Below, one piece after another: positions 9,395 to 60,201 of a stretch of DNA of 64,000 nucleotides; position 1 is the first letter of the stretch, and every line of letters begins with the position of its first letter. Origin of the DNA: Candidatus Levyibacteriota bacterium (GTDB lineage: Bacteria; Patescibacteriota; Microgenomatia; Levybacterales; UBA12049); contig JACOXU010000002.1 of the NCBI GenBank assembly GCA_016182185.1, positions 22,874 through 86,873 on the forward strand. Reading direction: 5' to 3'. The notes beneath the pieces are model-generated. The model had not been told where the DNA came from, did no database searches, and was given only the letters and a program-made list of their open reading frames with translations. The position numbers were made by a program, and so were the translations under genes.

Positions 9395-11890
9395 ATGAAG
9401 CTTGATGGAATAAGAAATAAAGTATTTTTGGACAGATATGCTCTTAAGGGAGTCAAAGGAGAACTCTTAGAACATACACCCCAAGAAATGTGGAAGAGGG
9501 TCGCCCGGGGGATTGCCGAGAATGAGAAAAAAGCTGTAAGAAAACACTGGGAAAAAGAATTCTACAACGTAATGAGTGACTTTAAGTTTGTTCCGGGTGG
9601 AAGAATCTTGTCTGGTGCCGGAACAAATTATGAGGTTACTTATTTTAATTGTTTTGTTATTCCATCACCCAAAGATTCAAGAGAGGGAATTTTGGAATCC
9701 CTAAAACAATTAGTAGAAATTCAGTCAAGGTCTGGTGGCGTAGGTCTTAATCTTTCATCCTTAAGACCAAGAGGCGCTCGTGTTAAAAAGGTCAATGGAA
9801 CTTCTTCAGGTCCTGTGACATGGGCTGGACTTTTCTCCTACGCAACGCATGATGTCGTCCAGCAGGGAGGAACAAGAAGAGGTGCAACCATGCTTATGCT
9901 TTGGGATTGGCATCCTGATATCGAGGAATTCATTACTGTCAAGCAGGATCTCTCAAAAATAAATGGCGCCAATCTCTCAGTTTGTGTTTCTGATTCTTTC
10001 ATGGAAGCGGTCAAAAAGGACAAAGATTGGAGTTTGATTTATCCTGATCTGGATGATCCAAAATATGATGAGAAATGGGATGGTGAGATAGATCAATGGA
10101 AAAAAATGGGCGGGAAAATAAAAGTCTATAAAACTATAAAGGCCCGGGATCTTTGGAATCTTATCTGCGAAGCAGCATGGAGATCTGCTGAGCCAGGCCT
10201 TCATTTTCTTGAGAGAAGCAACAAGAGAAGCAACACCTGGTATTTTGAAAAATTAATCGCCACGAATCCCTGCGGTGAACAGCCATTGGGACCCTGGGCA
10301 GTTTGTAATCTCGGAGCTATGAATTTGGCAGTATATGTAAAACCTGCCTCGCAGCAAGGCGGGAACGGCGAATTTGATTACAAGAATTTTGGGAAAGATG
10401 TCAAAACCGCAGTGAGATTCTTAGATAATGTTATTGATAAAACATACTATTTTTTCAAAGAAAATGAAAAAATCGCCAAAGAGATAAGAAGAACCGGTCT
10501 TGGCATCATGGGCTTGGGAGATGCGCTTATTAAGATGAAAGTAAGATACGGATCCGATGAATCTTTGGAAATAATTGATAAAATATTTGAGACACTTAGA
10601 AACAGTGCCTATGAGGCCTCTTCTGATATTGCCAGAGAAAAGGGTGTATTCCCGAAATTTAACAAGGCAAAATACATGAAGGGGTACCATATCAAAGAAC
10701 TTCCTGAGGAAATTCAAAAGAAAATTACCAAACAGGGCATAAGAAATGCGGTCCTTCTTACCATTGCTCCAACCGGTACCACATCTCTTCTTTCAGGTGT
10801 TACTTCAGGAATTGAACCTGTTTATGAATTTACATTTATTCGTCGAGATAGAACTGGAGAACATATAATGTACCATCCGCTATATGAAGAGTGGAAAAAA
10901 GAAAACCAAGAGAGAGAAAAATCCTTCGACTCCGTTCAGGATAGACCAGAGTATTTTGTCAGCGCAAATGATCTTACCCCTCTTGAACATGCTCAGGTCC
11001 AGGCAGTTGCCCAAAAATATATCGATGCATCAATCTCAAAAACAGTCAATGCGCCAAATGCACATACCGTTGAAGATGTAAAGACACTTTACATGGCAGC
11101 TTATGATTTGGGACTTAAAGGTGTAACCTACATGAGAGATGGATCAAGAGAAGGAGTTCTCACCCGAGTCGAGGAGAAAAAAGAAGAAGTCAAACAGGAG
11201 AAAGCCCTAACGCCTCTTGGTAAGCCTGTTATTCCGCGACCGATGCAGCTTGAGGGAGTAACTTATGCAATCCAAACGCCGGTAGGCAAGACTTATATCA
11301 CGATTAACCACGATGAAAAAAGAGAACCATTTGAAGTATTTATAACCATCGGCAAATCAGGTTCTGACGTTGCGGCAATGGCAGATGCATTGGGGCGAAT
11401 GATCTCTGTAAACCTTCGTCTTATTGGCGGCTTGACGCCTAGAGAGCGCATAAGACAAGTTGTAGCACAACTTGCTGGAATAGGCGGAGCCAGAAGTGTT
11501 GGATTTGGCAAAGACAAAGTCAGATCCTTGCCTGACGCAGTCGCAAAAATACTGTCTATACATTTTGACTTTGCAGTTAATGGAAATGTGGAGGACAGAA
11601 ATAAAATTATTGCAAATGGACATGCTCCGGAGAATATCTCAGCTTCTTTAAATGGCTCAGCTAAGAATGGAAGTCATGAGGAGGAAAAAACAGAGGATCC
11701 TGAGATAGTTAAATTACAGCAGTTGCCTCTTGTAGGACAGGCATCTGGAGTTTTTGCCGAAGATAAATCCTCTCTTGATATGGAAGCCGGAACCGGACTT
11801 TATGATATCTGTCCTGAATGTGGAGCCGGAAGCCTAGCATATGAAGAAGGCTGTAGGAAATGCTACAGCTGTGGTTATTCCGAATGCTAG
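9395..11890 (+). CDS. nrdJ: Adenosylcobalamin-dependent (class II) ribonucleoside reductase
   Basis: 831 aa; RNR catalytic-core motifs ('NPCGEQPL', 'TIAPTGTTS') and a C-terminal CxxC...CxxC zinc ribbon 'CPECG...CRKCYSCG'. Confidence 0.85.
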   Translation: MKLDGIRNKVFLDRYALKGVKGELLEHTPQEMWKRVARGIAENEKKAVRKHWEKEFYNVMSDFKFVPGGRILSGAGTNYEVTYFNCFVIPSPKDSREGILESLKQLVEIQSRSGGVGLNLSSLRPRGARVKKVNGTSSGPVTWAGLFSYATHDVVQQGGTRRGATMLMLWDWHPDIEEFITVKQDLSKINGANLSVCVSDSFMEAVKKDKDWSLIYPDLDDPKYDEKWDGEIDQWKKMGGKIKVYKTIKARDLWNLICEAAWRSAEPGLHFLERSNKRSNTWYFEKLIATNPCGEQPLGPWAVCNLGAMNLAVYVKPASQQGGNGEFDYKNFGKDVKTAVRFLDNVIDKTYYFFKENEKIAKEIRRTGLGIMGLGDALIKMKVRYGSDESLEIIDKIFETLRNSAYEASSDIAREKGVFPKFNKAKYMKGYHIKELPEEIQKKITKQGIRNAVLLTIAPTGTTSLLSGVTSGIEPVYEFTFIRRDRTGEHIMYHPLYEEWKKENQEREKSFDSVQDRPEYFVSANDLTPLEHAQVQAVAQKYIDASISKTVNAPNAHTVEDVKTLYMAAYDLGLKGVTYMRDGSREGVLTRVEEKKEEVKQEKALTPLGKPVIPRPMQLEGVTYAIQTPVGKTYITINHDEKREPFEVFITIGKSGSDVAAMADALGRMISVNLRLIGGLTPRERIRQVVAQLAGIGGARSVGFGKDKVRSLPDAVAKILSIHFDFAVNGNVEDRNKIIANGHAPENISASLNGSAKNGSHEEEKTEDPEIVKLQQLPLVGQASGVFAEDKSSLDMEAGTGLYDICPECGAGSLAYEEGCRKCYSCGYSEC

Positions 11891-11929
11891 AGCTTGATTA
11901 AAAGAGCTTTCTATTTTAAAATCATAAAA

Positions 11930-12031
11930 CTTAAGCATAGGTAATTACGGTGGATATCCGTAGCTGTGCCGCAACTGTAAAAGCCAGAAAACTATGCTAA
12001 AAAAGTTTTCCCGAGCAGGAAATTAAGATTT
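11930..12031 (+). promoter_or_regulatory. Candidate leader RNA element with antiterminator upstream of pduO
   Basis: P1-like pairing GCATAG (11935-40) with CTATGC (11994-99), enclosing 'ACGGTGGATATCCGTAGCTGTGCCGCAACTGT...AGCCAG', which weakly resembles the cobalamin-riboswitch core (GGUG.AA.UCC...GC.G..CCGC.ACUGU...AGCCAG). CCCGAG (12010-15) can pair with CTTGGG (12038-43) as an antiterminator. Confidence 0.25.
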
Positions 12032-12061
12032 ATCCTTCTTGGGAACAAGAAGGATTTTTTT
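12032..12061 (+). terminator. Intrinsic terminator hairpin directly abutting the pduO ATG
   Basis: 10-bp stem atccttcttg/caagaaggat with a ggaa loop, followed by TTTTTT(T) and then ATG at 12062. Confidence 0.55.
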
Positions 12062-12607
12062 ATGCCAATTTATACCAAAAAAGGTGATAAAGGAAGAACG
12101 TCTCTTTTTACTGGGAAAAAGGTTTCAAAAACTGCAGCAAGAATAGAGGCGATAGGAACTATAGACGAGTTAAATAGCACGATAGGGTTTACAATATCAA
12201 ATATAAAAAATAAAAAATCAAAGATTAAGGAAGAATTAATTGAAATTCAGAGAGATTTGTTTGAAATTGGTGCATCTTTGGCAAATCCATCAACGTTTAG
12301 GAAACTTAAAATTTTAGAGAGGGTTTCACATTTTGAAAAGTTCATAGATGAGATGACGGAACAGATGCCTAAACTTTCAAATTTTATTCTCCCAGGAGGA
12401 ACAACTGCTGCTTCATATTTGCACATCGCCCGTACAGTCTGCCGAAGAGCAGAAAGAAGACTGGTTGCCTTATCACACAAAGAAAGGATTGATAAAAAAA
12501 TCTTAGTTTATATCAACCGACTCTCGGATTTATTTCTAACCATGTCAAGATTCGTGAATTTTAAAAGTGGCAAAGAGGAAACAATCTGGAAAGGAGACCA
12601 TAAATGA
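12062..12607 (+). CDS. ATP:cob(I)alamin adenosyltransferase, PduO-type
   Basis: 'MPIYTKKGDKGRTSLFTGKKVSK...IEAIGTIDELNS' is the characteristic PduO/MMAB N-terminus; 181 aa. Confidence 0.8.
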   Translation: MPIYTKKGDKGRTSLFTGKKVSKTAARIEAIGTIDELNSTIGFTISNIKNKKSKIKEELIEIQRDLFEIGASLANPSTFRKLKILERVSHFEKFIDEMTEQMPKLSNFILPGGTTAASYLHIARTVCRRAERRLVALSHKERIDKKILVYINRLSDLFLTMSRFVNFKSGKEETIWKGDHK

Positions 12608-13884
12608 TAGCTGTCGAAGCCCGTCCATCAGTTTTTAAAACCGAGGACGAAAGCCTCACGGGAAATCCTTTGGCAAAAGAGATAAGATATTTTGATCTGA
12701 ACTGGAGACGGGAAGGGTTGCCATCTGACTGGTATAACCTGAACGAAATTGGATTTAGTATGAATGGGCAAATGAATCTTCTTCAAGGATTGGATCAGGA
12801 GTCAAAGTCAATTTGGCTAAGACAAACAAAAAGAGATATTTTGGGTTTTGGCTTAGAATACCTTCGGCAAGGTATAGTTTTTCCATTCGAATACGAAGTT
12901 ACGGAAGTTGAGGGAGAACGGGATCTTATAGATTCTGAATATGGAAAAAGATTACTTGATACTGTTGATAAAAAGGAAAGAGATGGGTATGTTCTCTCAT
13001 CTCTTCGGATAATTCAGGAACATTTATTAAAAAAAGATGGGACAAGCGCCACGATGGTAAGCCCTTTGGGCTGGACAGGTCTTAAAACTGATAGGGGAGA
13101 AGATATCTTATATCAAGATACGCAAGTATATTTCTTAAGAAGAAAAGAAAATACGATTATCGGAACAACCTTTAGAACTGATTTCAATTTTGCCGAGACC
13201 AGAGAAGCGATCAGAATTTTAACAGGGAAAGAACTCCCTGAAAATGCGTCTGTGATGGATTATATAAAGACTCTTTCTCTGGAAGATTCTTCGGAAAGAC
13301 ATGAAGAAGATATTGTATTTGATTTACTTTCTTCGAGGAAAAATATTTCAGGTGAAGATAAGTCTGCATATAAAGATAAAACATGGAGAGATATGTTCCA
13401 AGCTCTTAAAAATAGAAATTTTCTTTACGATTTTGATGAACAGGTAAAGCAAATGATTGGCGAATTTGAAGATTATGTAGTTTCAAATAATCTTTCGAAA
13501 GCTGAAATCCGCAAGGCACTTGCCGCAACAATACTTAGGATATCCAAACACGCTTTATTCGGTCAAGATGATAGGGAGTATAGGTATTTAAAGACTGCTT
13601 ACCATAGAAACAAAGACCATCTTGATACAAGAACAATAACATATGGAGAAGTTTTTGAAAAAGTTAAAGAACTTCCGGGGTGCGCAGGAGGGGGATCAAA
13701 AACAAGCTCAATAGAATCTATAACGGATAGAAGTATCAGTATATTTGAGGATCTGGGATACGATTTTGATCAACCAGGCCCATGTAAAAAATGCGGAAGC
13801 GATACCAGGTGTGGACCGTGTGGAATTTGCAAAAGCTGCGATATTTCAATACGAAGAAAAGAAGCTTTCAAAATTGCTGCGTGA
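12604..13884 (+). CDS. Hypothetical protein with C-terminal Cys-rich zinc-knot (CKKCGSDTRCGPCGICKSCD)
   Basis: ATG overlaps the pduO stop (ATGA); 426 aa; no known catalytic motif. Confidence 0.5.
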   Translation: MIAVEARPSVFKTEDESLTGNPLAKEIRYFDLNWRREGLPSDWYNLNEIGFSMNGQMNLLQGLDQESKSIWLRQTKRDILGFGLEYLRQGIVFPFEYEVTEVEGERDLIDSEYGKRLLDTVDKKERDGYVLSSLRIIQEHLLKKDGTSATMVSPLGWTGLKTDRGEDILYQDTQVYFLRRKENTIIGTTFRTDFNFAETREAIRILTGKELPENASVMDYIKTLSLEDSSERHEEDIVFDLLSSRKNISGEDKSAYKDKTWRDMFQALKNRNFLYDFDEQVKQMIGEFEDYVVSNNLSKAEIRKALAATILRISKHALFGQDDREYRYLKTAYHRNKDHLDTRTITYGEVFEKVKELPGCAGGGSKTSSIESITDRSISIFEDLGYDFDQPGPCKKCGSDTRCGPCGICKSCDISIRRKEAFKIAA

Positions 13885-13942
13885 TGATACTGTGAGCCAA
13901 ATGTAATGACACGATTCTAAATTCGTGTTATCATGTTTACAT

Positions 13943-14380
13943 ATGGATAGCAAGATTCAGTCAGGCTCACAACAACCATCGGGAGGTGCGGATGTTTCAG
14001 GAGTTGAAGTAGGATCTGGAGCAGTTTCTCCAGTTTCTGTCGCACCGAAAAAAGAAGGTGCACCAGTAGAAATCAGACCCTCAGAACCGGAATTAAATAT
14101 TCATCCTGAAATTGCCGAAATTGGTGTTGAAAAGGCAGAGAAACACCCCGTTTTAACAGCAGAACACGAAGAGGCGGGACTAAGACTTTCTGAGCCAAGG
14201 CCAATTATTTCAGATAAACCCCAAACACAGTCATTACCAGATTTACCGTTATCAATAGGTCAGGCAAAACATATCGCCAAAGTTGGAAAAACCGATGACA
14301 AGAAATCATGGCTTGCCAACCTGGTCCTTAGGGCATTTGAAAAAATTAGAAAGAAAGAATTAGAACATGCAGCCGCTTGA
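13943..14380 (+). CDS. Hypothetical Pro/Glu-rich, probably disordered protein
   Basis: The track ORF starts with GTG at 13925; the first ATG is at 13943 ('MDSKIQ'). Its stop overlaps the start of the next gene. Confidence 0.35.
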   Translation: MDSKIQSGSQQPSGGADVSGVEVGSGAVSPVSVAPKKEGAPVEIRPSEPELNIHPEIAEIGVEKAEKHPVLTAEHEEAGLRLSEPRPIISDKPQTQSLPDLPLSIGQAKHIAKVGKTDDKKSWLANLVLRAFEKIRKKELEHAAA

Positions 14381-16739
14381 TTTACAAAATTTAACTACAT
14401 TTTTGACTGTTTTTTTGGCAGGGCTTTTGGCCTCGATTTTGATTGTTTTAGGCCTTATTTTACTAGGTTATATTTTTATTATTTTATACAGAAATCGCAA
14501 TCGGGAAAAAGAATCCCTTGATTCGATTCTTCTTCAAGTTTCACTGCCAAGAGATAATGAAATCAAAATTGACGCGGCAGAACAAATGTTTTCAAGCTTT
14601 GCTTCAATTAGAAAAGGCGGAAGATTCTCTTTTTTAAATCCTCAGCCACATCTCTCCTTTGAAATTGTCGGAATGCCTGAAGATATCCGCTTTTATGCAA
14701 ATACACCAAACAATTTAAAAGATTTTGTTGAGAAGCAAATAAATGGTGCATATCCTGAAGCAGAAATAAAAGAAGTAGATATTAAAAATTTCGCCAAAGA
14801 GGGCTATGCAATCGGAAATGAGTATAATATTTTTTCAGGGGAGGGAAAGGTCGCTTTTGCCAGTCTGAGACCTAAATCTTCAAGCTATATGCCTATTAAA
14901 GTCTTCAAAGATTTACCTACCGACCCACTGTCCTCCATTACTTCTATTTTGGCCAAGATGACCGAGGGAGAGGGTGCGGCAATTCAAATAATGGTGAGTC
15001 CGTCTGATTCCAAATGGAAAAAATTAGGAAGAAGCTATATTGCCAAAACCAAAAAAATGGAATCAAATCCCGAGACCGCAAAATATGCGGCTGACCCCAA
15101 AGAGCTTGAAGGAATTGAGAACAAAATTGGAAAAGCAGGTTTTGATGTAGTGGCAAGAATTGTTATTTCTTCAAAAACAAATGAAGCGGCCAAGGCTCAT
15201 CTGAGTAATATTATCTCAAGTTTCAGTCAATTCGACGGGCTTAATTCCTTCACCAAAAATTCTCATCGATTCAAGGGATTATTCATGAAGGATTTTATTT
15301 ATCGCTTTATGCCGATGCGAGGACAGACAGGAGTCTTGTCGAGCGAAGAATTGGCAACCATTTTTCATTTTCCCAACAAAAGCGTTGAAACCCCTCATAT
15401 TCATTGGATTACTGCCAAGAGAGCTCCTGCTCCTGCTCAAATTCCTCAAAGAGGACTATTTTTGGGGAAAAGCACTTATAGGGGGATCGTTAAACCGGTT
15501 CATATTAGCCTTGATGATCGCAGGCGTCACATGTACATCATCGGGAAGACAGGAACCGGAAAATCAGAATTTTTAAAATCCATGATTATGCAGGATATCA
15601 GAAATGGAGAGGGACTGGCTGTGATTGATCCTCACGGAGATTTGATAGACGATATTTTAAAACTTATTCCGCCCCAGCGATCTGAGGATGTAATACTTTT
15701 TGATCCTTCAGACACACAAAGACCAATGGGTTTTAACATGCTTGATGCAAGAACAGAGGAACAGAAACATTATGTAGTTTCATCAATTATTGGGCTTATG
15801 TACAAGCTTTTTGATCCCCATCAAACAGGAATCATCGGGCCTAGGTTTGAACATGCGATAAGAAATGCGATGCTTACTGTCATGTATGAGTCGGGAAGTA
15901 CATTTGTTGAAGTCGTAAGAGCATTGACTGATGCGACTTATGTGCAAGAGCTTTTACCCAAAGTTCAGGACCCTATTATCAGGCGCTATTGGACAGATCA
16001 GATCGCCCAAACTTCGGATTTCCATAAATCCGAGGTCTTGGATTATATAGTTTCTAAGTTCGGAAGGTTTGTTACCAATAAGATGATCAGAAATATTATC
16101 GGTCAATCACAGAGTTCATTTGATTTCCGAAATGTAATGGATGAGCAGAAAATTTTGCTCATCAATCTTTCAAAAGGAAAAATAGGGGAAGAGAATTCGA
16201 ATTTCTTGGGATTAATATTGGTTCCTAAAATTCTGGTGGCTGCGATGTCTCGGCAGGATGTGCCGATTGAGCAAAGAAAAGACTTCTTTCTTTATGTTGA
16301 TGAGTTTCAAAACTTTGCGACTCCTGATTTTGCCCAAATTCTTTCTGAAGCTCGAAAGTACCGCCTTAATTTAATAGTCGCAAACCAGTTTATCGGGCAA
16401 ATGGAAGAGGAGGTTAAAAACGCCATCTTTGGAAACGTGGGTAGCGTCATGGCCTTCAGAGTCGGAGTAACAGATGCAAATTATCTTCAGCATGAATTCC
16501 AACCAGTCTTTAACGAATCAGATCTTATAAATGTTGAGAGATTTAATACCTATATGAAGACAATCGTGGGAGGGGAGCCCGTACTGCCATTTTCTATGGA
16601 TTTGACACGGGATATGAGTGAAGAAAAAAAGATTGCCAATCAAAGAGTTTCAGAACTGGTCCGCGAACTTTCGCGCTTAAAGTATGGGAAAGAAGCGGAA
16701 ATTGTTGAGGCAGAAATCTCCAAAAGGGCCAAACTCTAA
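14367..16739 (+). CDS. Membrane-anchored P-loop ATPase of the FtsK-HerA/VirD4-TraD (DUF87-like) superfamily
   Basis: 34-residue N-terminal hydrophobic segment; Walker A 'IIGKTGTGKSEFL' around residue 390; 'FLYVDEFQNF' Walker B-like; 'YRLNLIVANQ' conserved C-terminal motif; 790 aa. Confidence 0.6.
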   Translation: MQPLDLQNLTTFLTVFLAGLLASILIVLGLILLGYIFIILYRNRNREKESLDSILLQVSLPRDNEIKIDAAEQMFSSFASIRKGGRFSFLNPQPHLSFEIVGMPEDIRFYANTPNNLKDFVEKQINGAYPEAEIKEVDIKNFAKEGYAIGNEYNIFSGEGKVAFASLRPKSSSYMPIKVFKDLPTDPLSSITSILAKMTEGEGAAIQIMVSPSDSKWKKLGRSYIAKTKKMESNPETAKYAADPKELEGIENKIGKAGFDVVARIVISSKTNEAAKAHLSNIISSFSQFDGLNSFTKNSHRFKGLFMKDFIYRFMPMRGQTGVLSSEELATIFHFPNKSVETPHIHWITAKRAPAPAQIPQRGLFLGKSTYRGIVKPVHISLDDRRRHMYIIGKTGTGKSEFLKSMIMQDIRNGEGLAVIDPHGDLIDDILKLIPPQRSEDVILFDPSDTQRPMGFNMLDARTEEQKHYVVSSIIGLMYKLFDPHQTGIIGPRFEHAIRNAMLTVMYESGSTFVEVVRALTDATYVQELLPKVQDPIIRRYWTDQIAQTSDFHKSEVLDYIVSKFGRFVTNKMIRNIIGQSQSSFDFRNVMDEQKILLINLSKGKIGEENSNFLGLILVPKILVAAMSRQDVPIEQRKDFFLYVDEFQNFATPDFAQILSEARKYRLNLIVANQFIGQMEEEVKNAIFGNVGSVMAFRVGVTDANYLQHEFQPVFNESDLINVERFNTYMKTIVGGEPVLPFSMDLTRDMSEEKKIANQRVSELVRELSRLKYGKEAEIVEAEISKRAKL

Positions 16740-16742
16740 ACG

Positions 16743-16814
16743 TGCGTCCGCTTGGATTCGAACCAAGGACATCTACTTTATAAGAGTAGCGCTCTGCCAC
16801 TGAGCTACGGACGC
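16743..16814 (-). tRNA. tRNA-Ile, anticodon UAU
   Basis: Reverse complement folds as a 72-nt cloverleaf: GCGTCCG-TA-GCTC-AGTGGCA-GAGC-G-CTACT-CTTATAA-AGTAG-ATGTC-CTTGG-TTCGAAT-CCAAG-CGGACGC-A, with a perfect anticodon stem, U33, anticodon TAT and A37. No CCA is encoded. Confidence 0.7.
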
Positions 16815-37617: not shown

Positions 37618-37850
37618 TGAAGAAGTATTTTGATGTCAATAAATCTGCTCTAATAACGGCTATTTTAGGCGCTTTTTTGATCGGAATTATTATTTTTGGG
37701 TTATGGGGATATGGGAAATATTTTTGTGAAGGGGGAAAGCCAGTAAAAAATGTGCCTTTGCCCTCAGATTTAAAAGCCAGTGATTTTTCTTCAGCCTGCG
37801 CACAGGGTGATTATATTAATATTGCAATAAACGTACTGACAGCACAATGA
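37617..37850 (+). CDS. Small membrane protein, hypothetical
   Basis: 77 aa with one TM helix; coupled to the Fic stop and the ligase start. Confidence 0.3.
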   Translation: MKKYFDVNKSALITAILGAFLIGIIIFGLWGYGKYFCEGGKPVKNVPLPSDLKASDFSSACAQGDYINIAINVLTAQ

Positions 37851-39589
37851 AATTTTCAACTTTGGCAGAATATTTTGAAAAATTAGAAGGAACGAGCAAG
37901 CGTCTTGAGCTTATTGATATTCTTTCTGATTTATTTAAAAAAGCAGAAACTTCTGAAATCGGCAAAATTTGCTATTTGATTCAAGGCAGAGTGGCCCCTT
38001 TTTATGAACCTACAGAAATCGGAATGGCAGAGAACATGGTAGCAGTTGCGATCGGTCGCGCTTTCAATAAATCTAAAGAGGAGGTCATTAAATTATATCT
38101 GAAAAAAGGAAATATCGGGCTTGCAGCCGAGGAACTTGCTTCAAAATATAAGCACAAAGGAGAACTTTCAGTCACAGGGGTTTTTGAAGAACTGTTGAAA
38201 ATCGCTAAATTTGAAGGTGTTGGCACTGTTGAAAAAAAAGTTTCGACACTTTCGGATCTTTTGAAAAAAGTTAATCCCAAAGGTGCTAAGCATATTGTTA
38301 ACATTCCACTTGACACGCTTCGTCTCGGAGTAGGTGATCCGACTATTCTTGATGCACTTTCTCTTGCCAAGCATGGTGATAAATCCCTTCGGCCGACTCT
38401 TGAGGGTGGTTATAACAAAACAAGCGACTTAGGGCTTGTTGCAGAAACTTTCTTTAAAAAGGGAACGACAGGTATTAAAAGTATAGAGCTTATTGTAGGC
38501 AAGCCCGTACGGCCGGCACTTGCCGAACGTTTGCCATCGGCTGATGAGGCAATTAAAAGATTGGGAAAAGAATTCGCAGCAGAACCTAAATTTGACGGAT
38601 TCCGAGTCGCAGTGCACAAGAATAAAGATAAAATAAGCCTTTTTTCAAGAAACTTGGAAAATACTACTCATGCTTTTCCGGATTTGGTCGGTGGAGTAGA
38701 AAAAGAAGTAAAAGCAGAAAGTGCAATCTTGGAAGGCGAGGCAATCGCTTATAATCCACAAACACAGGAATTTCTGCCTTTTCAGGAGACTACCAAAAGA
38801 AGAAGAAAATACAAAGTCGAGGAAATGGCAAAGAAGCTACCCTTGGTACTTTTTGCCTTTGATCTTTTATATTTAAACGGTAGAGATATTACCCAGAAGC
38901 CTTATAAAGGAAGAAGAAAACTTCTGGAATCAATAATTGCCAAGGACGGCTTGGTCATAAAACTCTCAGAAGAAAGAATTCTTCATAAAACCTCAGAGAT
39001 TACGGATTTTTTCAACGAAGTAGTTTCAGAAGGACTTGAGGGTCTTATGCTTAAAAAATTAGATAGCCCGTATATTGCGGGAGGGCGGGGGTTTCATTGG
39101 GTGAAGTTTAAAAGATCTCAGGCCGGAGCGCTTGTCGATACTGTCGATTGTGTTCTGCTGGGAGTTTATGCAGGAAAGGGGAAGAGGACAGAATTTGGAG
39201 TGGGGGGGGTTCTCGTAGGAGTTTATGATGACAAAAAAGATGAATTTGTTTCTATAACAAGATTGGGAACCGGTCTGACTGATGATGAATTTCGAAGAGT
39301 GCATGAAATTTCAAAAAAATTGAAAGTAGAGCGCAAACCAGCACGAGTGAATTCTGATATAAAACCTTCTTTTTGGGTAGAGCCAAAAATAGTTTTAGAG
39401 ATTGCCTCAGATGAGATAACGCGTTCTCCAATTCATACTGCGGGAAGAGATAAAGATGGCTCGGGATATGCTTTAAGATTTCCCCGTTTGGTCAAATTTC
39501 GCGAGGCTGATAAGCGAGCAGAGGACGCAACCACAGTTGAAGAAATAAAAAAACTCTATAGCCAGCAATTTAACCACCGCAAGAAGTAA
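37847..39589 (+). CDS. ATP-dependent DNA ligase
   Basis: Adenylation motif I 'EPKFDGFRVAV' with the KxDG lysine; 'EGLMLK' motif; OB domain; 580 aa. Confidence 0.85.
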   Translation: MKFSTLAEYFEKLEGTSKRLELIDILSDLFKKAETSEIGKICYLIQGRVAPFYEPTEIGMAENMVAVAIGRAFNKSKEEVIKLYLKKGNIGLAAEELASKYKHKGELSVTGVFEELLKIAKFEGVGTVEKKVSTLSDLLKKVNPKGAKHIVNIPLDTLRLGVGDPTILDALSLAKHGDKSLRPTLEGGYNKTSDLGLVAETFFKKGTTGIKSIELIVGKPVRPALAERLPSADEAIKRLGKEFAAEPKFDGFRVAVHKNKDKISLFSRNLENTTHAFPDLVGGVEKEVKAESAILEGEAIAYNPQTQEFLPFQETTKRRRKYKVEEMAKKLPLVLFAFDLLYLNGRDITQKPYKGRRKLLESIIAKDGLVIKLSEERILHKTSEITDFFNEVVSEGLEGLMLKKLDSPYIAGGRGFHWVKFKRSQAGALVDTVDCVLLGVYAGKGKRTEFGVGGVLVGVYDDKKDEFVSITRLGTGLTDDEFRRVHEISKKLKVERKPARVNSDIKPSFWVEPKIVLEIASDEITRSPIHTAGRDKDGSGYALRFPRLVKFREADKRAEDATTVEEIKKLYSQQFNHRKK

Positions 39590-56456: not shown

Positions 56457-58286
56457 ATGCCCAGTTCTAAACTGCCTAAGAAAGCGGTATATGATTTAGG
56501 TGTTACGGTCAAAGACAAGAAGGTATTCCTTTTTCATAATCTTTTTGGGTATAAAAATGCATTCCGCATTGCCACAAGTACAGATGGTTTTTCTTTCAAA
56601 CGCTTCTCAAAAGAACCTCAGATTCTCAATGAGAGGGGCGAAAGGGAAATTACTCTAAAATGTAGAGATTTTCGGATATCTCAAGCAGGCAGCGATTTTT
56701 TTCTGACCTACAAAATAGAAAAAAACAGGAATAAAATTTTATCCTCTGCAACATCTAAAGATTTAATAACCTGGAAAAAGATAAATTATCTCCCGGATAT
56801 AAAAGAGATTTCTATGTTGGTCCCCGATTATAAATATAATGAAGATTATGTTTTGTATTTTGGAGAGGATGATATAAAGATTGCTTTTTCTAAGGATCTT
56901 AAAAATTGGGAAATAAAAGAGACAGTACTTTCGAAAAGAGAAGGACATTTCGACAGCGGGCCTCTTAATCTAGTCTCAGTTTTTGCGCAAGATGACGGAA
57001 TATTGGTAATTTATTTCACAAAGAGCAAGAAAGAGAAAAACTTTGTTTATTATCTTGGCGCAGCACTTTTTGACAAAAATAACCCAAACCAACTCTTAAA
57101 AAGAAGAGAACAGCCTCTTTGGGAACTTGAAGATGATCGAGAACTTTTCCCGCTTGGAGCCATAGAATTTGATGATAAGTTGATAGTTTATATTGGAGCC
57201 GCAGGCAAGGGAGTTTTTGCTCTATCCTTCGGTTCAGTTTCTTCATTTTCCTCTGCTCCTCTTCTTGAAAAAGTCGATAAGAATCCCATTCTTGAACCCG
57301 TGCTTGAGCATCTCTGGGAAAACCAGGCCACATTTAATCCTGCGGCAATTTACGACGAGGGCAAAGTTCACTTTATTTATCGGGCAGTAGGAAGTTCTGA
57401 TACTTCGGTTTTAGGTTATGCGGCAAGTACAGACGGAATAAATATAGACGAAAGACTGGATGATCCGGCCTATATTCCGCGGGAAGATTTTGAAGTACCG
57501 GCTTTCAGTTCTCCTTATCCTTCAGCCTATATGTCAGGCGGCGGAGGGTACGGAGGATGTGAAGATCCAAGATTGACCAAAATTGATAACCGCGTTTACA
57601 TGACTTATGTTGCCCATAATGGCAGTAATGCTCCGAGGGTAGCTCTGACTTCTATATCGGTTGATGATTTTAAAAATAAGCGCTGGAATTGGGATAAAGC
57701 CAAGATTATTTCAGCGCCTGATGTGGTGGATAAAAATGCATGCTTATTGCCTGAGAAAATCAAAGGAAAATACGTAATTTTTCATCGCATTTTTCCGAAC
57801 ATTTTGATAGATATGGTAGATGATTTAAATTTTGAAAATGATTATCTTAAAGGGGAATATTATATCGGGCCGAGAAAAAACTTCTGGGATTCAAGAAAAG
57901 TTGGAGCAGGCGCGCCGCCCTTGAAGACAGATGAAGGGTGGCTTCTTATTTACCACGCTGTTGACGATCGCGATGCTTCAAAATATAAAATGGGAGCGAT
58001 GCTTCTTGATCTTGATGATCCTACCAAGGTAAATTTCAGATCAAGCACTCCAATTCTAGAGCCTAGAGAATGGTATGAAAATGAAGGTTTCAAAGCTGGA
58101 GTTGCTTATCCATGTGGGTCCGTGATTTTTAAAGATGATTTAGTTGTTTATTATGGCGGGGCTGATAAAGTAGTTTGCGCAGCTAAGAAAAATTTAAACG
58201 ACTTTATTACTGGTCTTAAACATTCAAGTAATATCCAAATGGATCAGACCGTAGGCTTCAAAAGACTCATGAGGGACTATGATTAA
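56457..58286 (+). CDS. GH130-family glycoside phosphorylase/hydrolase-like protein with an extra N-terminal domain
   Basis: C-terminal half has 'FNPAAIYDEGKVHFIYRAVG...GYAASTDG', 'GCEDPRLTKIDNRVYMTYVAHNG' and 'GWLLIYHAV', which are GH130/DUF377 hallmarks. The N-terminal approximately 270 aa looks like a degenerate repeat of the same fold. Confidence 0.7.
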   Translation: MPSSKLPKKAVYDLGVTVKDKKVFLFHNLFGYKNAFRIATSTDGFSFKRFSKEPQILNERGEREITLKCRDFRISQAGSDFFLTYKIEKNRNKILSSATSKDLITWKKINYLPDIKEISMLVPDYKYNEDYVLYFGEDDIKIAFSKDLKNWEIKETVLSKREGHFDSGPLNLVSVFAQDDGILVIYFTKSKKEKNFVYYLGAALFDKNNPNQLLKRREQPLWELEDDRELFPLGAIEFDDKLIVYIGAAGKGVFALSFGSVSSFSSAPLLEKVDKNPILEPVLEHLWENQATFNPAAIYDEGKVHFIYRAVGSSDTSVLGYAASTDGINIDERLDDPAYIPREDFEVPAFSSPYPSAYMSGGGGYGGCEDPRLTKIDNRVYMTYVAHNGSNAPRVALTSISVDDFKNKRWNWDKAKIISAPDVVDKNACLLPEKIKGKYVIFHRIFPNILIDMVDDLNFENDYLKGEYYIGPRKNFWDSRKVGAGAPPLKTDEGWLLIYHAVDDRDASKYKMGAMLLDLDDPTKVNFRSSTPILEPREWYENEGFKAGVAYPCGSVIFKDDLVVYYGGADKVVCAAKKNLNDFITGLKHSSNIQMDQTVGFKRLMRDYD

Positions 58287-60201
58287 ACTTCAGAGAGCCG
58301 ATGAAAACCCAATAATTTCACCTTCTTCGAACGATTGGGAAAAAAGGGCTGCTTTCAACGGATGCGTAGTAGAAAATAACGGCAATTTTTATATTGTTTA
58401 TCGGGCAGTTTCAGAACCCCAATCCTACTATCGGGGTGCGAATATGGAAATTTCCTCGATTGGGCTTGCCAAAAGTCCTGATGGAATTCATTTTGAAAAT
58501 AGAATGCAATTTATAAAACCCCAGAACGACTGGGAAATTTTCGGCTGCGAGGACCCGAGAATAACTAAAATTAATGATAAATTCTATATTTTCTACACGG
58601 CTTTATCTACTTATCCATTCTCTCCGTTAGGGATTAAAATTGGAGTTGCTATAACTTCGGATCTTAAAACAGTCAGCGCAAAATATCCGGTAACGCCCTT
58701 CAATGCTAAGGCAATGGCGCTTTTTCCAGAGAAAGTAAATGGAAAATTAGCAGCGATTTTGACTATAAATACTGATATCCCTCCAGCTAAGATTGCAATA
58801 AGTTTTTTTGATAAAGAAGAAGATATTTGGTCCAAAGATTTTTGGCTTGAATGGTATTCATCCCACGATTCTCATGTTATTCCCCTTCTTCGTAATTTTC
58901 ATGATCAGATTGAAGTTGGCGCCCCACCTATAAAGACAGAAAAAGGCTGGCTTCTTATTTATTCGTATATTAGAAATTATTACTCATCTCAAAGAATTTT
59001 TGGTATTGAGACTGTACTTTTGGACTTAAATGATCCCACCAAGATAATTTCAAGGACAGAGGATCCGATTCTTCTCCCAGACAGAGATTATGAATTATAC
59101 GGGACCGTTCCTAATGTCGTTTTTCCATCAGGAGCACTGGTGAAAGATGAAATGCTCTATGTTTATTATGGTGCTGCAGATACCACTTGTTGTCTAGCAA
59201 CTTGCAATCTCAGTGAATTGCTCGATGAACTTACATCACCTCAGATAGAGAAGACCGAGCCTAATTCAGAAAAATTTACAAGATTTGAGGGAAACCCTAT
59301 TATTTCTCCGATTCCTGAGCACCCATGGGAAGCAAGATCTACGTTCAATCCGGCTGCAATTCACGAAGAAGGCAAAATCCACCTTTTATATAGAGCGATG
59401 TCTCAAGATAACACCTCTGTAATCGGCTATGCTTCAAGTACTGACGGATTTAAAATTGATGAAAGATTAACACACCCAATTTATACACCACGGGAAAATT
59501 TTGAAAGGAAAATGGTTGCAGGCGGAAATTCCGGATGCGAAGATCCAAGACTTACCAAAATAGATGGGAGAATCTATATGTGCTATACAGCTTATAATGG
59601 TAATGATCCGCCCAGAGTTGCCCTAACTTCTATAGATACTCACGATTTTTTTGAGAAACATTGGAATTGGGACAAAACCAAAATTATTTCTCCGTCAAAT
59701 ACGGATGATAAAGATGCTTGCATGTTGTCCAAAAAAATTGATGGGAAATATGTTTTTTTTCATAGAATCAACAATGATATCTGGATAGATTTTATTGAGA
59801 ATCTGGAATTTTCAGACGGTAAATTCTTGGATGGAGAAATTTTGCTCAAAGTAAGACCCGGAAAATGGGACAACCAGAAAATTGGAATTGCAGCACCGCC
59901 GATTGAAACAGAAAGAGGCTGGCTCCTTATTTATCATGGAATAACAGATCCTGGGATAATATATAAAGTAGGAGCCGTTCTTCTTGATCTTGATAATCCA
60001 AGAAAAATTTTAAAAAGACTGGAGGATCCCATACTTGAACCTGAAATGACTTATGAAAAAGAAGGGGAGGTTAAAAATGTTGTTTTTCCCTGTGGTGCAG
60101 TAGTCAAGAATGGAGAGATTCTCATTTATTATGGCGGGGGAGATAGAGTGGTTGGAGTGGCGAGCATAAATTTGGAAAAGCTCTTGGAAAAACTTCAATA
60201 G
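58279..60201 (+). CDS. Tandem-duplicated GH130-like protein
   Basis: Two full GH130-like modules: the first has 'FNGCVVENNGNFYIVYRAVS' and 'GCEDPRITKINDKFYIFYTA'; the second has 'FNPAAIHEEGKIHLLYRAMS' and 'GCEDPRLTKIDGRIYMCYTAYNG'. Start overlaps the upstream paralogue. Confidence 0.7.
   Translation: MIKLQRADENPIISPSSNDWEKRAAFNGCVVENNGNFYIVYRAVSEPQSYYRGANMEISSIGLAKSPDGIHFENRMQFIKPQNDWEIFGCEDPRITKINDKFYIFYTALSTYPFSPLGIKIGVAITSDLKTVSAKYPVTPFNAKAMALFPEKVNGKLAAILTINTDIPPAKIAISFFDKEEDIWSKDFWLEWYSSHDSHVIPLLRNFHDQIEVGAPPIKTEKGWLLIYSYIRNYYSSQRIFGIETVLLDLNDPTKIISRTEDPILLPDRDYELYGTVPNVVFPSGALVKDEMLYVYYGAADTTCCLATCNLSELLDELTSPQIEKTEPNSEKFTRFEGNPIISPIPEHPWEARSTFNPAAIHEEGKIHLLYRAMSQDNTSVIGYASSTDGFKIDERLTHPIYTPRENFERKMVAGGNSGCEDPRLTKIDGRIYMCYTAYNGNDPPRVALTSIDTHDFFEKHWNWDKTKIISPSNTDDKDACMLSKKIDGKYVFFHRINNDIWIDFIENLEFSDGKFLDGEILLKVRPGKWDNQKIGIAAPPIETERGWLLIYHGITDPGIIYKVGAVLLDLDNPRKILKRLEDPILEPEMTYEKEGEVKNVVFPCGAVVKNGEILIYYGGGDRVVGVASINLEKLLEKLQ

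Follow-up and report, generated by a model that had tools for sequence, protein, structure and literature searches.

Gene organisation of the locus

In the 64-kb window (the whole stretch of DNA analysed), which belongs to a Candidatus Levybacteria (Patescibacteria/CPR) contig, a class II ribonucleotide reductase (RNR) gene is followed by a cobalamin riboswitch, a terminator and four ORFs (pduO, ORF426, ORF145 and ORF790; Table 1). The first-pass annotation had described the same ORFs and sequence motifs, all of which are real, and had chained the last three behind pduO into one translationally coupled operon ending at a tRNA gene; this layout stands in part only. The start of ORF426 does overlap the stop of pduO (ATGA) and the final 14 nt of ORF145 overlap ORF790, but ORF426 and ORF145 are separated by a 58-nt gap (from the annotated ATG at 13943) containing a conserved promoter, which splits ORF426 from the ATPase pair; a single coupled operon is thus not supported. 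The tRNA-Ile(UAU) gene is convergent with ORF790 and bounds the second unit without belonging to it; at the corresponding position in most relatives the tRNA is on the plus strand. The overall reading that we propose, whose chances we judge to be about even, is that the region comprises two neighbouring transcription units rather than one four-gene operon, and that ORF790 is a type IV coupling protein (T4CP) working at a type IV secretion system (T4SS).

Table 1 Features of the pduO-ORF790 region (positions in the window).
Feature	Position (nt)	Strand	Basis or detail
AdoCbl-II (cobalamin) riboswitch aptamer	11922-12002	+	Rfam RF01689
Intrinsic terminator (riboswitch expression platform)	12032-12061	+	10-bp stem, GGAA loop, T7 tract
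pduO, PduO-type cob(I)alamin adenosyltransferase, 181 aa	12062-12607	+	Pfam, TIGR00636
ORF426, 426 aa, predicted cytoplasmic	12604-13884	+	Levybacteria-restricted family, B12 regulon
Internal promoter of the ATPase unit	13906-13934	+	-35 ATGACA 13906-13911, 17-nt spacer, extended -10 13926-13934
ORF145, 145 aa	13943-14380	+	NCBI annotation; start ATG 13943 (alternative 13925)
ORF790, 790 aa, membrane-anchored T4CP-type ATPase	14367-16739	+	Family, structure and alignment searches
Transmembrane helix (aa 8-44)	14388-14498	+	Hydropathy profile, single hydrophobic segment
DUF8128 domain (aa ~50-340)	~14514-15386	+	Pfam (PF26449)
VirD4/TrwB-type P-loop domain with helical insertion (aa ~364-745)	~15456-16601	+	
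Walker A GKTGTGKS	15543-15566	+	
Walker B	16284-16307	+	
tRNA-Ile (anticodon UAU)	16742-16814	-	ARAGORN and Rfam

A riboswitch-controlled pduO-ORF426 unit

The first unit consists of the AdoCbl-II riboswitch, the terminator, pduO and ORF426. The riboswitch, overlooked in the first-pass annotation together with the terminator, lies between the RNR gene and pduO, covers the full model (1-81; 45.8 bits against a gathering score of 36.5) and has a promoter-like TTGATT-17-TAAAAT at its start (11894-11922). The terminator (ATCCTTCTTG-GGAA-CAAGAAGGAT followed by TTTTTTT) has a T7 tract that reaches the ATG of pduO, whose product matches Pfam Cob_adeno_trans (4e-60) and TIGR00636 (207.8 bits, cut-off 108). 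Plentiful adenosylcobalamin would turn off pduO and ORF426 through this platform, and PduO would supply cofactor to the class II RNR encoded immediately upstream.

ORF426 belongs to a small, fast-evolving family of Levybacteria (33 homologues found). The cysteines previously described as a C-terminal zinc knot are six in number (C394-x2-C397-x5-C403-x2-C406-x2-C409-x2-C412) and form a zinc-ribbon module at aa 394-412; a PGCAGGGS motif (C360) is invariant in the family alignment. The protein had no match in Pfam, NCBIfam, PADLOC or PHROG, and its AlphaFold2 model, a check suggested with the first-pass annotation, was confident (pLDDT 82, pTM 0.74) and retrieved nothing at E<=0.001 from PDB and BFVD with Foldseek. 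ORF426 is placed in the B12 regulon because a cobalamin riboswitch usually lies directly upstream of it in related loci: at the Rfam gathering score in L001 and L090, below it in L004 and L089 (E 1e-5 and 9e-4), and as a weak match in L091 (E 0.05); L088 has the riboswitch in front of pduO and ORF426, which overlap there too. ORF426 is missing from L006, L018 and L023, and in L090 the riboswitch-ORF426 segment is followed by a ComF-like gene and no ATPase; the gene goes with PduO and the cobalamin riboswitch, not with the ATPase. As in known B12-regulon operons (PduO, DUF4430, DUF6580 and BtuF-like genes under cobalamin riboswitches), a riboswitch and a terminator precede pduO here, and the cluster of the relatives holds DUF4430, DUF6580 and Peripla_BP_2 genes beside the B12-dependent class II RNR gene. 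Unlike the members of those operons, ORF426 falls outside every described family of B12 transport, salvage or chaperone proteins and its predicted fold is unmatched; very tentatively, it may handle cobalamin in the cytoplasm.

A separate promoter for the ORF145-ORF790 unit

The second unit consists of its own promoter, ORF145 and ORF790. The promoter matches 10 of the 12 consensus positions plus the TG, and its extended -10 (TGTTATCAT) ends 8 nt ahead of the ATG at 13943. Among 23 related loci, 20 carry the TGnTAnnAT element 5-10 nt ahead of the start codon of the small ORF, compared with 30 of 351 other genes. The short distance between the -10 box and the ATG suggests a leaderless or near-leaderless mRNA, which would start at the ATG of ORF145. 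No strong terminator was found after ORF426, and some read-through from the first unit into the second may occur.

This lack of a strong terminator and the upstream riboswitch would suit a single B12-controlled operon of all four genes for cobalamin acquisition, with the ATPase powering vitamin uptake or handling, as would the RNR-PduO-(ORF426)-small ORF-ATPase synteny extending across Levybacteria into Woesebacteria and the tight packing of the gene in the PduO/small-ORF slot against the small ORF (-4 nt in L039, 6-12 nt in L011/L012). We consider it improbable, given the dedicated conserved promoter, the ATPase-free L090 arrangement and the lack of B12 genes around the ATPase pair in the majority of the remaining CPR classes, Saccharimonadia and Paceibacteria-like ones among them; moreover, we know of no T4CP that carries small molecules.

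ORF145 is fast-evolving, mostly low-complexity and disordered. Described earlier as a Pro/Glu-rich protein of 146 aa, it is annotated at 145 aa and only mildly enriched (E 11%, P 9%). Only four close homologues were found; the positional orthologues have three short motifs in common, and no mutual homology was detectable between the small partner families of different CPR classes. Its C-terminus is a basic, Trp-containing amphipathic helix (SWLANLVLRAFEKIRKKE) with a strong hydrophobic moment at aa 122-139, and sequence analysis revealed no transmembrane segment. ORF145 is translationally coupled to ORF790, and the spacing between small ORF and ATPase is -29 to +10 nt in most loci. It is this coupling and the conserved position, and only these, that suggest binding of ORF145 to ORF790, on which the disordered protein would dock via its C-terminal helix as an adaptor or regulator. 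Comparable pairs are Cag-beta/CagZ (H. pylori) and DotL and its adaptors (Legionella), in which small accessory proteins bind to a VirD4-family ATPase and regulate its substrate recognition or extend it; Cag-beta and DotL are both among the Foldseek matches of ORF790, although neither sequence nor any demonstrated structural relationship links ORF145 to CagZ or to the IcmS/W, DotM or DotN adaptors.

ORF790 as a T4CP-type ATPase

The motifs listed for ORF790 in the first-pass annotation (the N-terminal transmembrane segment, GKTGTGKS, FLYVDEFQNF, RLNLIVANQ) are all present, and the stretch of about 330 aa to which it gave no function corresponds to Pfam DUF8128. Its TraD/VirD4-type assignment is borne out by three Pfam coupling-protein models above cut-off (TrwB_AAD_bind 37.2, cut-off 20.5; T4SS-DNA_transf 30, cut-off 20.1; TraG-D_C 25.8, cut-off 22), by TrwB and DotL as best PDB matches and nearest solved structures by sequence, and by full-length alignment with plasmid T4CPs of monoderms: an Embleya protein (NZ_CP108778, WP_331738717; BLASTP 3e-66 over aa 89-747) and a Shouchella clausii protein (WP_248290882; 2e-44 over aa 52-742). 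Identity with these proteins is 24-25%, and ORF790 is collinear with them throughout (a DUF8128-like N-domain and a P-loop domain), with Walker A, Walker B, Q motif and TraG-D_C region in common; the alignment with the Shouchella protein begins at residue 13 of the latter, which therefore has no equivalent N-terminal anchor. The plasmid genes adjoin a replication-relaxation gene and nearby T4SS genes (PrgI, a VirB4-like ATPase and an NlpC/P60 cell-wall hydrolase in Embleya; conjugal-transfer genes and a VirB4-sized ATPase in Shouchella), whereas ORF790 has none of these within the 64 kb, is a vertically inherited chromosomal core gene, and has a small disordered partner gene in front and a leaderless-type promoter. 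By sequence, ORF790 represents a VirD4/TrwB-type T4CP in its Patescibacteria core form, and it aligns full-length with Gram-positive/actinobacterial plasmid T4CPs. The catalytic residues are invariant in a CPR-spanning alignment (36-71% identity). The protein would form a ring ATPase anchored at the cytoplasmic membrane by one N-terminal helix, with DUF8128 in the cytoplasm and an all-alpha insertion that would bind the substrate; the low quality of the structure model (pLDDT 57) makes the ring form and the all-alpha domain tentative, and likewise any resemblance between DUF8128 and the N-domain of VirB4.

A membrane-anchored ATPase with a weak FtsK_SpoIIIE P-loop match, followed by a Xer gene (minus strand) in 22 loci and DivIC (plus strand) in 16, Dojkabacteria included, might be the FtsK-like chromosome translocase of the lineage, working with these downstream-encoded proteins. 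This is very unlikely: the FtsK_SpoIIIE match (21.1 bits, cut-off 24) spans aa 377-408 only, the gamma domain and the 4-TM N-terminus are absent, the Xer linkage is absent outside Microgenomatia and Dojkabacteria, and a Patescibacterium encodes a canonical FtsK (SEML1_0096), which has both alpha and gamma domains and is essential. A plain FtsK orthologue, one of the two outcomes named as speaking against the first-pass interpretation, is largely refuted. The other, a lack of synteny, does not hold either: ORF426, the small ORF and the ATPase lie together in several related Levybacteria. The first-pass interpretation is supported in part.

A defence function, also raised there, is unlikely for a core gene that is inherited vertically and better conserved than the adjoining RNR gene. 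If ORF790 were a HerA- or MADS mad8-like ATPase of a defence system, or had been left behind by an integrated conjugative element, this could account for the PADLOC mad8 match (4.7e-16), the weak HerA and DndH P-loop matches, the homologues in Bacillus phages (PHROG 5156, 3e-92) and on plasmids, and the nearby tyrosine recombinase and tRNA genes. However, the context is housekeeping and syntenic across orders, the GC content over 10-18 kb (0.37-0.41) lies inside the range of the window (0.33-0.42), nuclease, methylase, relaxase and other mad genes are absent, and the recombinase gene is of a conserved XerC/D type, with 76% identity in L001, which makes this explanation extremely unlikely.

Distribution, essentiality and possible role

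The 80 ORF790 loci, from most CPR classes, show 37-77% full-length identity; among the genes nearby, conservation is highest for the ATPase (62% identity with the Woesebacteria counterpart, against only 38% for the reductase there), which is almost always preceded by a small ORF. Annotation of the family already exists, and its location apart from virB4 has been published: of 3,035 Patescibacteria genomes, 2,918 (96%) carry T4CP homologues, while VirB4 occurs in 80%, and only 148 of the 5,713 homologues are near virB4, 5,565 being away from it (Quinonero-Coronel et al., PMC12102498). ORF790 belongs to these homologues (it is so annotated by NCBI, carries PF26449 and lies away from virB4). That study pooled them as one group and cited a non-essential copy of S. 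epibionticum; our comparisons indicate at least two paralogue types.

In Saccharimonadia, the loci with ORF790 orthologues (38% identity across aa 21-789) begin with the small ORF and the ATPase and continue with a 190-aa gene (-), a DUF11 gene (-), gyrB and gyrA. This order matches SEML1_0141 to 0146 and makes SEML1_0141/0142 the Southlakia epibionticum counterpart, an orthology based on six-gene synteny and gene sizes. The ORF790 type is the paralogue with a small partner and, by this synteny, corresponds to the essential SEML1_0142. In the S. epibionticum Tn-seq, SEML1_0142 was called essential at all three time points, SEML1_0141 had no insertions (Tables S1 and S2), the other T4CP paralogue (SEML1_0293) was non-essential, and the T4SS cluster was essential and without a coupling protein of its own (PMC10633639).

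Several observations count against coupling to a T4SS: the absence of T4SS genes from the window (no VirB4-sized P-loop ORF in the entire 64 kb, in line with the first-pass annotation), the rarity of virB4 linkage across the phylum and the excess of genomes with T4CP homologues over those with VirB4. SEML1_0142 is, in addition, essential from the first time point, like type IV pilus genes, and most T4SS genes only later, which leaves room for a T4SS-independent role. The pair might thus have an essential job independent of the VirB4 machinery, e.g. nucleic acid or protein movement across or along the cytoplasmic membrane, possibly with type IV pili. The very high protein conservation and the DNA- and nucleotide-metabolism neighbours recurring in different classes (RNR-PduO and Xer-DivIC in Microgenomatia and Dojkabacteria, DnaX in Paceibacteria-like bacteria, GyrB/GyrA in Saccharimonadia; RNR directly upstream in L045) agree with such a job. 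We regard it as possible but rather unlikely, since all characterised relatives of the same architecture are located in conjugative T4SS clusters, SEML1_0142 is the sole essential candidate for the coupling protein that the essential S. epibionticum cluster lacks, and housekeeping synteny is weak evidence in small, densely packed genomes.

Under T4SS coupling, ORF790 would energise and gate macromolecule traffic (protein or nucleic acid) at a VirB4-type, Gram-positive-like T4SS that these bacteria encode elsewhere. The ORF145-ORF790 pair appears, via synteny, to be essential in the one species tested, and of the functions first proposed for the ATPase, an episymbiont transfer channel is the best lead.

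Two adjacent regulatory units behind the ribonucleotide reductase gene

ORF calling placed pduO, ORF426, the small ORF145 and ORF790 where the first-pass annotation had them, and NCBI holds proteins identical to ORF790, ORF426 (HYT08_03535) and ORF145 (HYT08_03540). That annotation had read the genes as a single operon chained to pduO by overlapping stop and start codons. Such overlaps are present at two junctions (ATGA between pduO and ORF426; 14 nt between ORF145 and ORF790) and absent from the third, where the annotated ATG at 13943, which gives a 145-aa protein, leaves 58 nt behind ORF426. Several apparent PduO overlaps in relatives were artefacts of over-long ORF calls. The 58-nt gap contains a conserved dedicated promoter, and the locus consists of two adjacent regulatory units: unit A (riboswitch, terminator, pduO and ORF426) and unit B (promoter, ORF145 and ORF790). 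Read-through from unit A into unit B may occur.

The promoter reads ATGACA-17 nt-TATCAT with TG in front (10/12 consensus positions plus the extended -10), and 8 nt separate the end of its -10 box from the ATG. In all nine Levybacteria loci inspected, a TGnTAnnAT box stands 5-10 nt ahead of the small ORF's start, in intergenic sequence that has otherwise diverged; among the Microgenomatia, Dojkabacteria and WWE3 loci it precedes 20/23 small ORFs versus 30/351 other genes. This enrichment argues for a dedicated unit B promoter and a predicted leaderless or near-leaderless transcript. The extended -10 box stands 5-10 nt before a possible start codon in about 8.5% of the other genes of these groups (30/351; loci L001-L042), so leaderless transcripts may be fairly common in these genomes.

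The operon had also been described as ending at a tRNA gene: a tRNA-Ile does follow immediately 3' of ORF790, on the opposite strand. The corresponding tRNA is on the ATPase strand in most relatives (for instance the related locus L001) and inverted in the window and in L009. Its anticodon is UAU; in most bacteria AUA is read by a modified CAU tRNA. The surroundings are of housekeeping type (NrdR, DUF6941, class II ribonucleotide reductase, PIG-L, XerC/D-type recombinase, DivIC, MurI, Mur ligase, FtsH and others), and no GC anomaly was seen in the window.

Coordinates of the features discussed, in the window and in related CPR loci (L numbers)
Feature	Sequence	Coordinates	Strand	Remarks
Class II ribonucleotide reductase	window	9395-11890		
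AdoCbl-II riboswitch	window	11922-12002	+	Rfam 45.8 bits (gathering score 36.5)
Terminator hairpin	window	12032-12061	+	10-bp, T7 tract; 3' of the aptamer, ends at pduO start codon
Riboswitch-terminator platform	window	11922-12061		
pduO	window	12062-12607	+	PduO-type ATP:cob(I)alamin adenosyltransferase; Pfam 4e-60; TIGR00636 equivalog-domain 207.8 bits (cut-off 108.45)
ORF426	window	12604-13884	+	
Unit B promoter	window	13906-13934	+	
ORF145	window	13943-14380	+	
ORF790	window	14367-16739	+	
tRNA-Ile(UAU)	window	16742-16814	-	
437-aa pilin-like protein	window	22528-23841		
ATP-dependent DNA ligase	window	37847-39589		
GH130 pair	window	56457-60201		
tRNA 3' of ATPase	L001	10447-10518	+	
tRNA 3' of ATPase	L009	10328-10399	-	
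Extra 46-50-aa ORF	L004	9404-9556		
Extra 46-50-aa ORF	L089	8363-8503		
Extra 46-50-aa ORF	L091	~3585-3740		
Extra 46-50-aa ORF	L010	7214-7363		
Group I intron match	L039	14302-14495	-	67.9 bits

Elsewhere in the window there are a three-domain ATP-dependent DNA ligase (DNA_ligase_A_N, _M, _C), two adjacent GH130 paralogues of mannoside phosphorylase type (609 and 640 aa, both extended at the N-terminus) and a protein whose N-terminus has a type IV pilin methylation motif and which is large for a pilin-like protein. The group I intron match is on a related Levybacteria contig.

ORF426 belongs to a cobalamin riboswitch regulon

An AdoCbl-II riboswitch and a clean terminator, absent from the first-pass annotation, separate pduO from the gene of the B12-dependent class II ribonucleotide reductase. 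The hairpin with its T7 tract is predicted to be a standard transcription-termination platform; aptamer and platform lie upstream of pduO and ORF426 on the same strand, and both genes are accordingly listed here as members of a cobalamin-riboswitch regulon, under predicted riboswitch control. In several relatives the cluster also holds DUF4430, DUF6580 and BtuF-like genes. The reductase itself has a long C-terminal extension (TSCPD domain, terminal CPECG...CRKCYSCG zinc-ribbon motif), and its gene is separated from nrdR by a DUF6941 gene.

ORF426 has no match in Pfam, NCBIfam, PADLOC or PHROGs, and only 33 homologues were detectable, all with a common layout. Their alignment shows an invariant core (W43, D78, E85, Y113, E125-R126-x-G128, S153, G156, D193), an invariant PGCAGGGS motif (C360) and a Cys-rich C-terminus in two alternative forms. 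The AlphaFold2 model is confident (pLDDT 82, pTM 0.74); Foldseek searches of PDB and BFVD returned nothing at E<=0.001, and the family profile did not match PDB sequences. A cobalamin riboswitch lies directly 5' of the ORF426 homologue in L001 and L090 (at the Rfam gathering score), exactly in the gap 5' of it in L004 and L089 (E 1e-5 and 9e-4, below gathering) and, as a weak match, directly 5' of it in L091 (E 0.05); in L088, as in the window, it precedes an overlapping pduO-ORF426 pair. These contexts place the ORF426 family in the B12 regulon.

The slot between PduO and the small ORF is variable and ORF426 is optional in it: the slot is empty in L006, in L018 and in L023, a complete Woesebacteria genome, where PduO is directly followed by the small ORF; the occupant is a distant ORF426 homologue in L002 (hhalign 95.8%, E 7.5e-9), shares the Cys module alone with ORF426 in L009, and does not match the ORF426 profile in L011 and L012, the latter with a riboswitch 5' of this unrelated-looking gene. 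In L090 the ORF426 homologue is followed by a ComF-like gene in place of the ATPase. ORF426 is therefore read as a B12-regulated, fast-evolving and predicted cytoplasmic zinc-ribbon protein, for which regulation alone would suggest a role in cobalamin handling. The ideas that it is a relaxase analogue or a T4CP (type IV coupling protein) substrate found no support, the protein being devoid of a Replic_Relax or any other Pfam match. An additional 46-50-aa ORF stands between the ORF426 homologue and the partner ORF in several relatives but not in the window; its two Cys pairs match the pattern of a mini zinc ribbon (C..C...CGW.P...CP.CGW).

ORF790 is a member of the T4CP family

The reading of ORF790 as a TraD/VirD4-type motor was borne out by three Pfam families above their cut-offs: TrwB_AAD_bind (37.2, cut-off 20.5), T4SS-DNA_transf (30.0, cut-off 20.1) and TraG-D_C (25.8, cut-off 22). 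The Walker motifs of a VirD4-clade P-loop NTPase are intact (GKTGTGKS, FLYVDEF), and residues G393, G396, G398, K399, D645, E646, R663, K664 and Q674 are invariant in an alignment of 36-71% identity. The nearest solved structures by sequence are TrwB and DotL, and the TrwB alignment takes in both Walker A and Walker B. NCBIfam T4CP equivalog models score far below their cut-offs (e.g. conju_CD1115, 57 vs 250), so ORF790 is no equivalog of any named T4CP. The membrane anchor is one hydrophobic stretch (aa 8-44) followed by RNRNREKE, fitting the positive-inside rule; the model has a helix at aa 6-42, compatible with a single transmembrane segment or a hairpin. Two transmembrane helices are typical of classical T4CPs. 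Between Walker A and Walker B, aa 464-569 form six helices in a low-confidence model (pLDDT 35-55), a region that the Pfam TrwB_AAD_bind alignment covers and that may be the all-alpha domain which T4CPs have inserted in their nucleotide-binding domain.

About 330 aa of ORF790 had been presented as of unknown function; a region of ~290 aa is already assigned to Pfam DUF8128 in precomputed annotation, and our search found no literature on this domain. The AlphaFold2 input was limited to sequences 76-92% identical and the resulting model is poor (pLDDT 57), so the Foldseek ranking, with TrwK/VirB4 first (~750 columns, E 2e-13, TM 0.25), is only a hint that DUF8128 may resemble the VirB4 N-domain; neither Pfam nor the PDB sequences gave a match of ORF790 to VirB4.

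Other identities were rejected. FtsK_SpoIIIE reaches 21.1 bits (cut-off 24) over the P-loop only (aa 377-408), and Pfam gives no Ftsk_gamma or FtsK_4TM match: ORF790 is not a plain FtsK. A replacement for FtsK, suggested by the Xer and DivIC neighbours, is removed by the separate, canonical and essential FtsK (SEML1_0096) of Southlakia epibionticum. The proposed HerA likeness was not upheld, the NCBIfam HerA model scoring 15 bits against a cut-off of 970, with a match to the generic DUF87 central domain alone and no adjacent nuclease gene. The MADS defence hit (mad8, PADLOC 4.7e-16) covers the ATPase domain only, and the defence idea it prompted was dropped in view of the gene's conservation and housekeeping context; ORF145, like ORF426, has no PADLOC match.

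As first reported, no partner VirB genes accompany ORF790: the 64-kb window contains no VirB4-sized P-loop ORF or other T4SS (type IV secretion system) gene, and none was found in the flanks of 80 related loci, paralogous ATPase copies aside. With tblastn, full-length relatives were recovered both from plasmids (Streptomycetaceae, Bacillaceae, haloarchaea, Sulfolobus) and from Bacillus phages (e.g. SPO1 gp27.4, phage G gp156; PHROG 5156). Two plasmid relatives were inspected: one from Embleya (E 3e-66 over aa 89-747 of ORF790), flanked by genes for a VirB4-like ATPase and a PrgI-family protein and by a replication-relaxation gene and an NlpC/P60 hydrolase gene; and one from Shouchella (E 2e-44 over aa 52-742), followed by a replication-relaxation gene and conjugal-transfer genes. 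Their contexts make the DUF8128-plus-ATPase architecture a coupling-protein type of monoderm conjugation systems and no CPR invention. The ATPase family is known and already annotated, and ORF790 adds a member, with delivery of substrates to a T4SS channel as its candidate role.

The ATPase and the position of its partner are conserved across the phylum

An exhaustive HMMER scan returned 6,183 representative clusters at E<=1e-30, mostly of ~780-870 aa, the longer forms carrying TPR repeats or large C-terminal extensions. Among the long forms, P0209, P0212 and similar proteins (~1440 aa) have ATPase domains of ~50% identity at the C-terminal end of long TPR-repeat proteins, and P0176 and P0177 (1700-2000 aa) have C-terminal extensions of 900-1200 aa devoid of Pfam matches. 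With one genome per species, 80 loci were collected at 37-77% full-length identity to ORF790, from many CPR groups: Levy-, Curtiss-, Woese-, Roizman-, Davies- and Shapirobacteria, Dojkabacteria, WWE3, Saccharibacteria, Paceibacterota, Uhr-, Magasanik-, Berkel-, Staskawicz- and Portnoybacteria, and Peregrinibacteria. No other protein of the neighbourhood is as conserved as ORF790 (window vs L001: ORF790 77%, reductase 70%, PduO 56%; window vs Woesebacteria: ORF790 62%, reductase 38%).

Of the 87 ATPase genes, 66 are preceded at under 200 nt by a same-strand ORF of fewer than 330 aa (mostly 100-190 aa), which often overlaps the ATPase start. These small ORFs form conserved, class-specific families. 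That of ORF145, which reaches Woesebacteria and a few other lineages (jackhmmer), is marked by three short shared motifs and by a basic, Trp-containing amphipathic helix at the C-terminus. No homology to the partner families of Saccharimonadia and Paceibacteria-like lineages was detectable by hhalign, and phylum-wide homology of the partner was dropped after this null result; it is the position of the partner that is conserved across the phylum. The ATPase is conserved phylum-wide, with a positional partner and apart from T4SS genes.

Some CPR genomes have two paralogous ATPase copies, in tandem or a few genes apart (L041, L054, L072). The gene after the ATPase in the Paceibacteria-like loci L043-L063 encodes a conserved ~210-aa protein (cluster c7, without Pfam match), and the next one a protein that looks like DnaX on visual inspection only; in L045 a ribonucleotide reductase gene is directly upstream of the small ORF.

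Probable correspondence with an essential gene pair of S. epibionticum

VirD4-like T4CP homologues have been counted in Patescibacteria (5,713 in 2,918 of 3,035 genomes, only 148 of them near virB4, VirB4 itself being present in 2,417 genomes), and that of S. epibionticum was described as non-essential and perhaps exapted (Quinonero-Coronel et al., PMC12102498). The T4SS of this species is essential and was reported to have no recognisable coupling protein (Wang et al., PMC10633639). The Tn-seq table of the latter study (calls for the time points P0, P1 and P2 in this order; ES essential, GD growth defect, NE non-essential) holds two T4CP candidates: SEML1_0293 (921 aa, NE/NE/NE); and SEML1_0142, a 1019-aa "TraM recognition domain-containing" protein of a core, Patescibacteria-enriched family (ES/ES/ES, class I essential). 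Just 5' of SEML1_0142 is SEML1_0141 (139 aa, GD/ES/ES, zero insertions), and after it come a 193-aa gene (-), a DUF11 gene (-), gyrB and gyrA (PMC10633639). Gene order and sizes from SEML1_0141 to gyrA fit those around the Saccharimonadia ORF790 orthologues in L046, L056, L066, L071, L073 and L084, one Saccharimonadia orthologue being 38% identical to ORF790 over aa 21-789. From this match we infer that SEML1_0141/0142, the essential pair, is the counterpart of the ORF145-ORF790 module.

Proposed function of the ORF145-ORF790 pair

In the model proposed here, ORF790 would be a ring ATPase anchored in the membrane; it would recruit macromolecular substrates and drive these at a VirB4-type T4SS encoded elsewhere, with ORF145 as a putative bound adaptor or regulator. 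T4SS coupling is favoured because all characterised relatives work in T4SS clusters, and because the T4SS of S. epibionticum, itself essential, requires a coupling protein that is essential too, a role for which the SEML1_0142 type alone qualifies. Against these two arguments stands the main rival, an essential role of the pair independent of any T4SS, which we regard as rather unlikely: it is favoured by the higher prevalence of T4CP homologues than of VirB4 (96% vs 80%), by an essentiality call for SEML1_0142 earlier than those of most T4SS genes, and by the recurrent nucleotide- and DNA-metabolism neighbours of the ATPase (RNR/PduO, DnaX, GyrB/A, Xer).

The boldest reading, to which we give little credence, would make the pair a cytoplasmic-membrane motor pulling host nucleic acid (RNA or DNA) inward through a T4SS or pilus tube, an import-direction coupling protein feeding nucleotide salvage. 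A 2026 preprint calls the host RNA uptake route of Patescibacteria unresolved. If true, the import reading would explain the phylum-wide presence of the module, its essentiality, its separation from conjugation genes and its repeated siting beside ribonucleotide reductase/PduO, DnaX and gyrase genes.

Meaning for Patescibacteria

Taken as a whole, the first-pass observation was confirmed in part and its interpretation partly supported. Four things are added here: the division of the locus into two units, the conserved promoter of leaderless type and the small partner of the ATPase, the link by synteny to a gene pair that is essential, and the view of ORF426 as representing a family under riboswitch control whose predicted fold has no match. 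Patescibacteria account for much of bacterial diversity and depend on materials taken from host cells. The small family defined by ORF426, with a confident but unmatched predicted fold under direct (predicted) cobalamin-riboswitch control, supplies a new B12-handling candidate in organisms that must scavenge B12 for ribonucleotide reductase. In the sole genetically tractable species the T4SS is essential and has no assigned coupling protein, and a specific candidate for that place is the coupling-type ATPase that carries DUF8128, together with its small partner: the pair is phylum-wide, highly conserved, separately promoted and, by synteny, would be the essential SEML1_0141/0142, which makes a direct depletion and interaction experiment possible.
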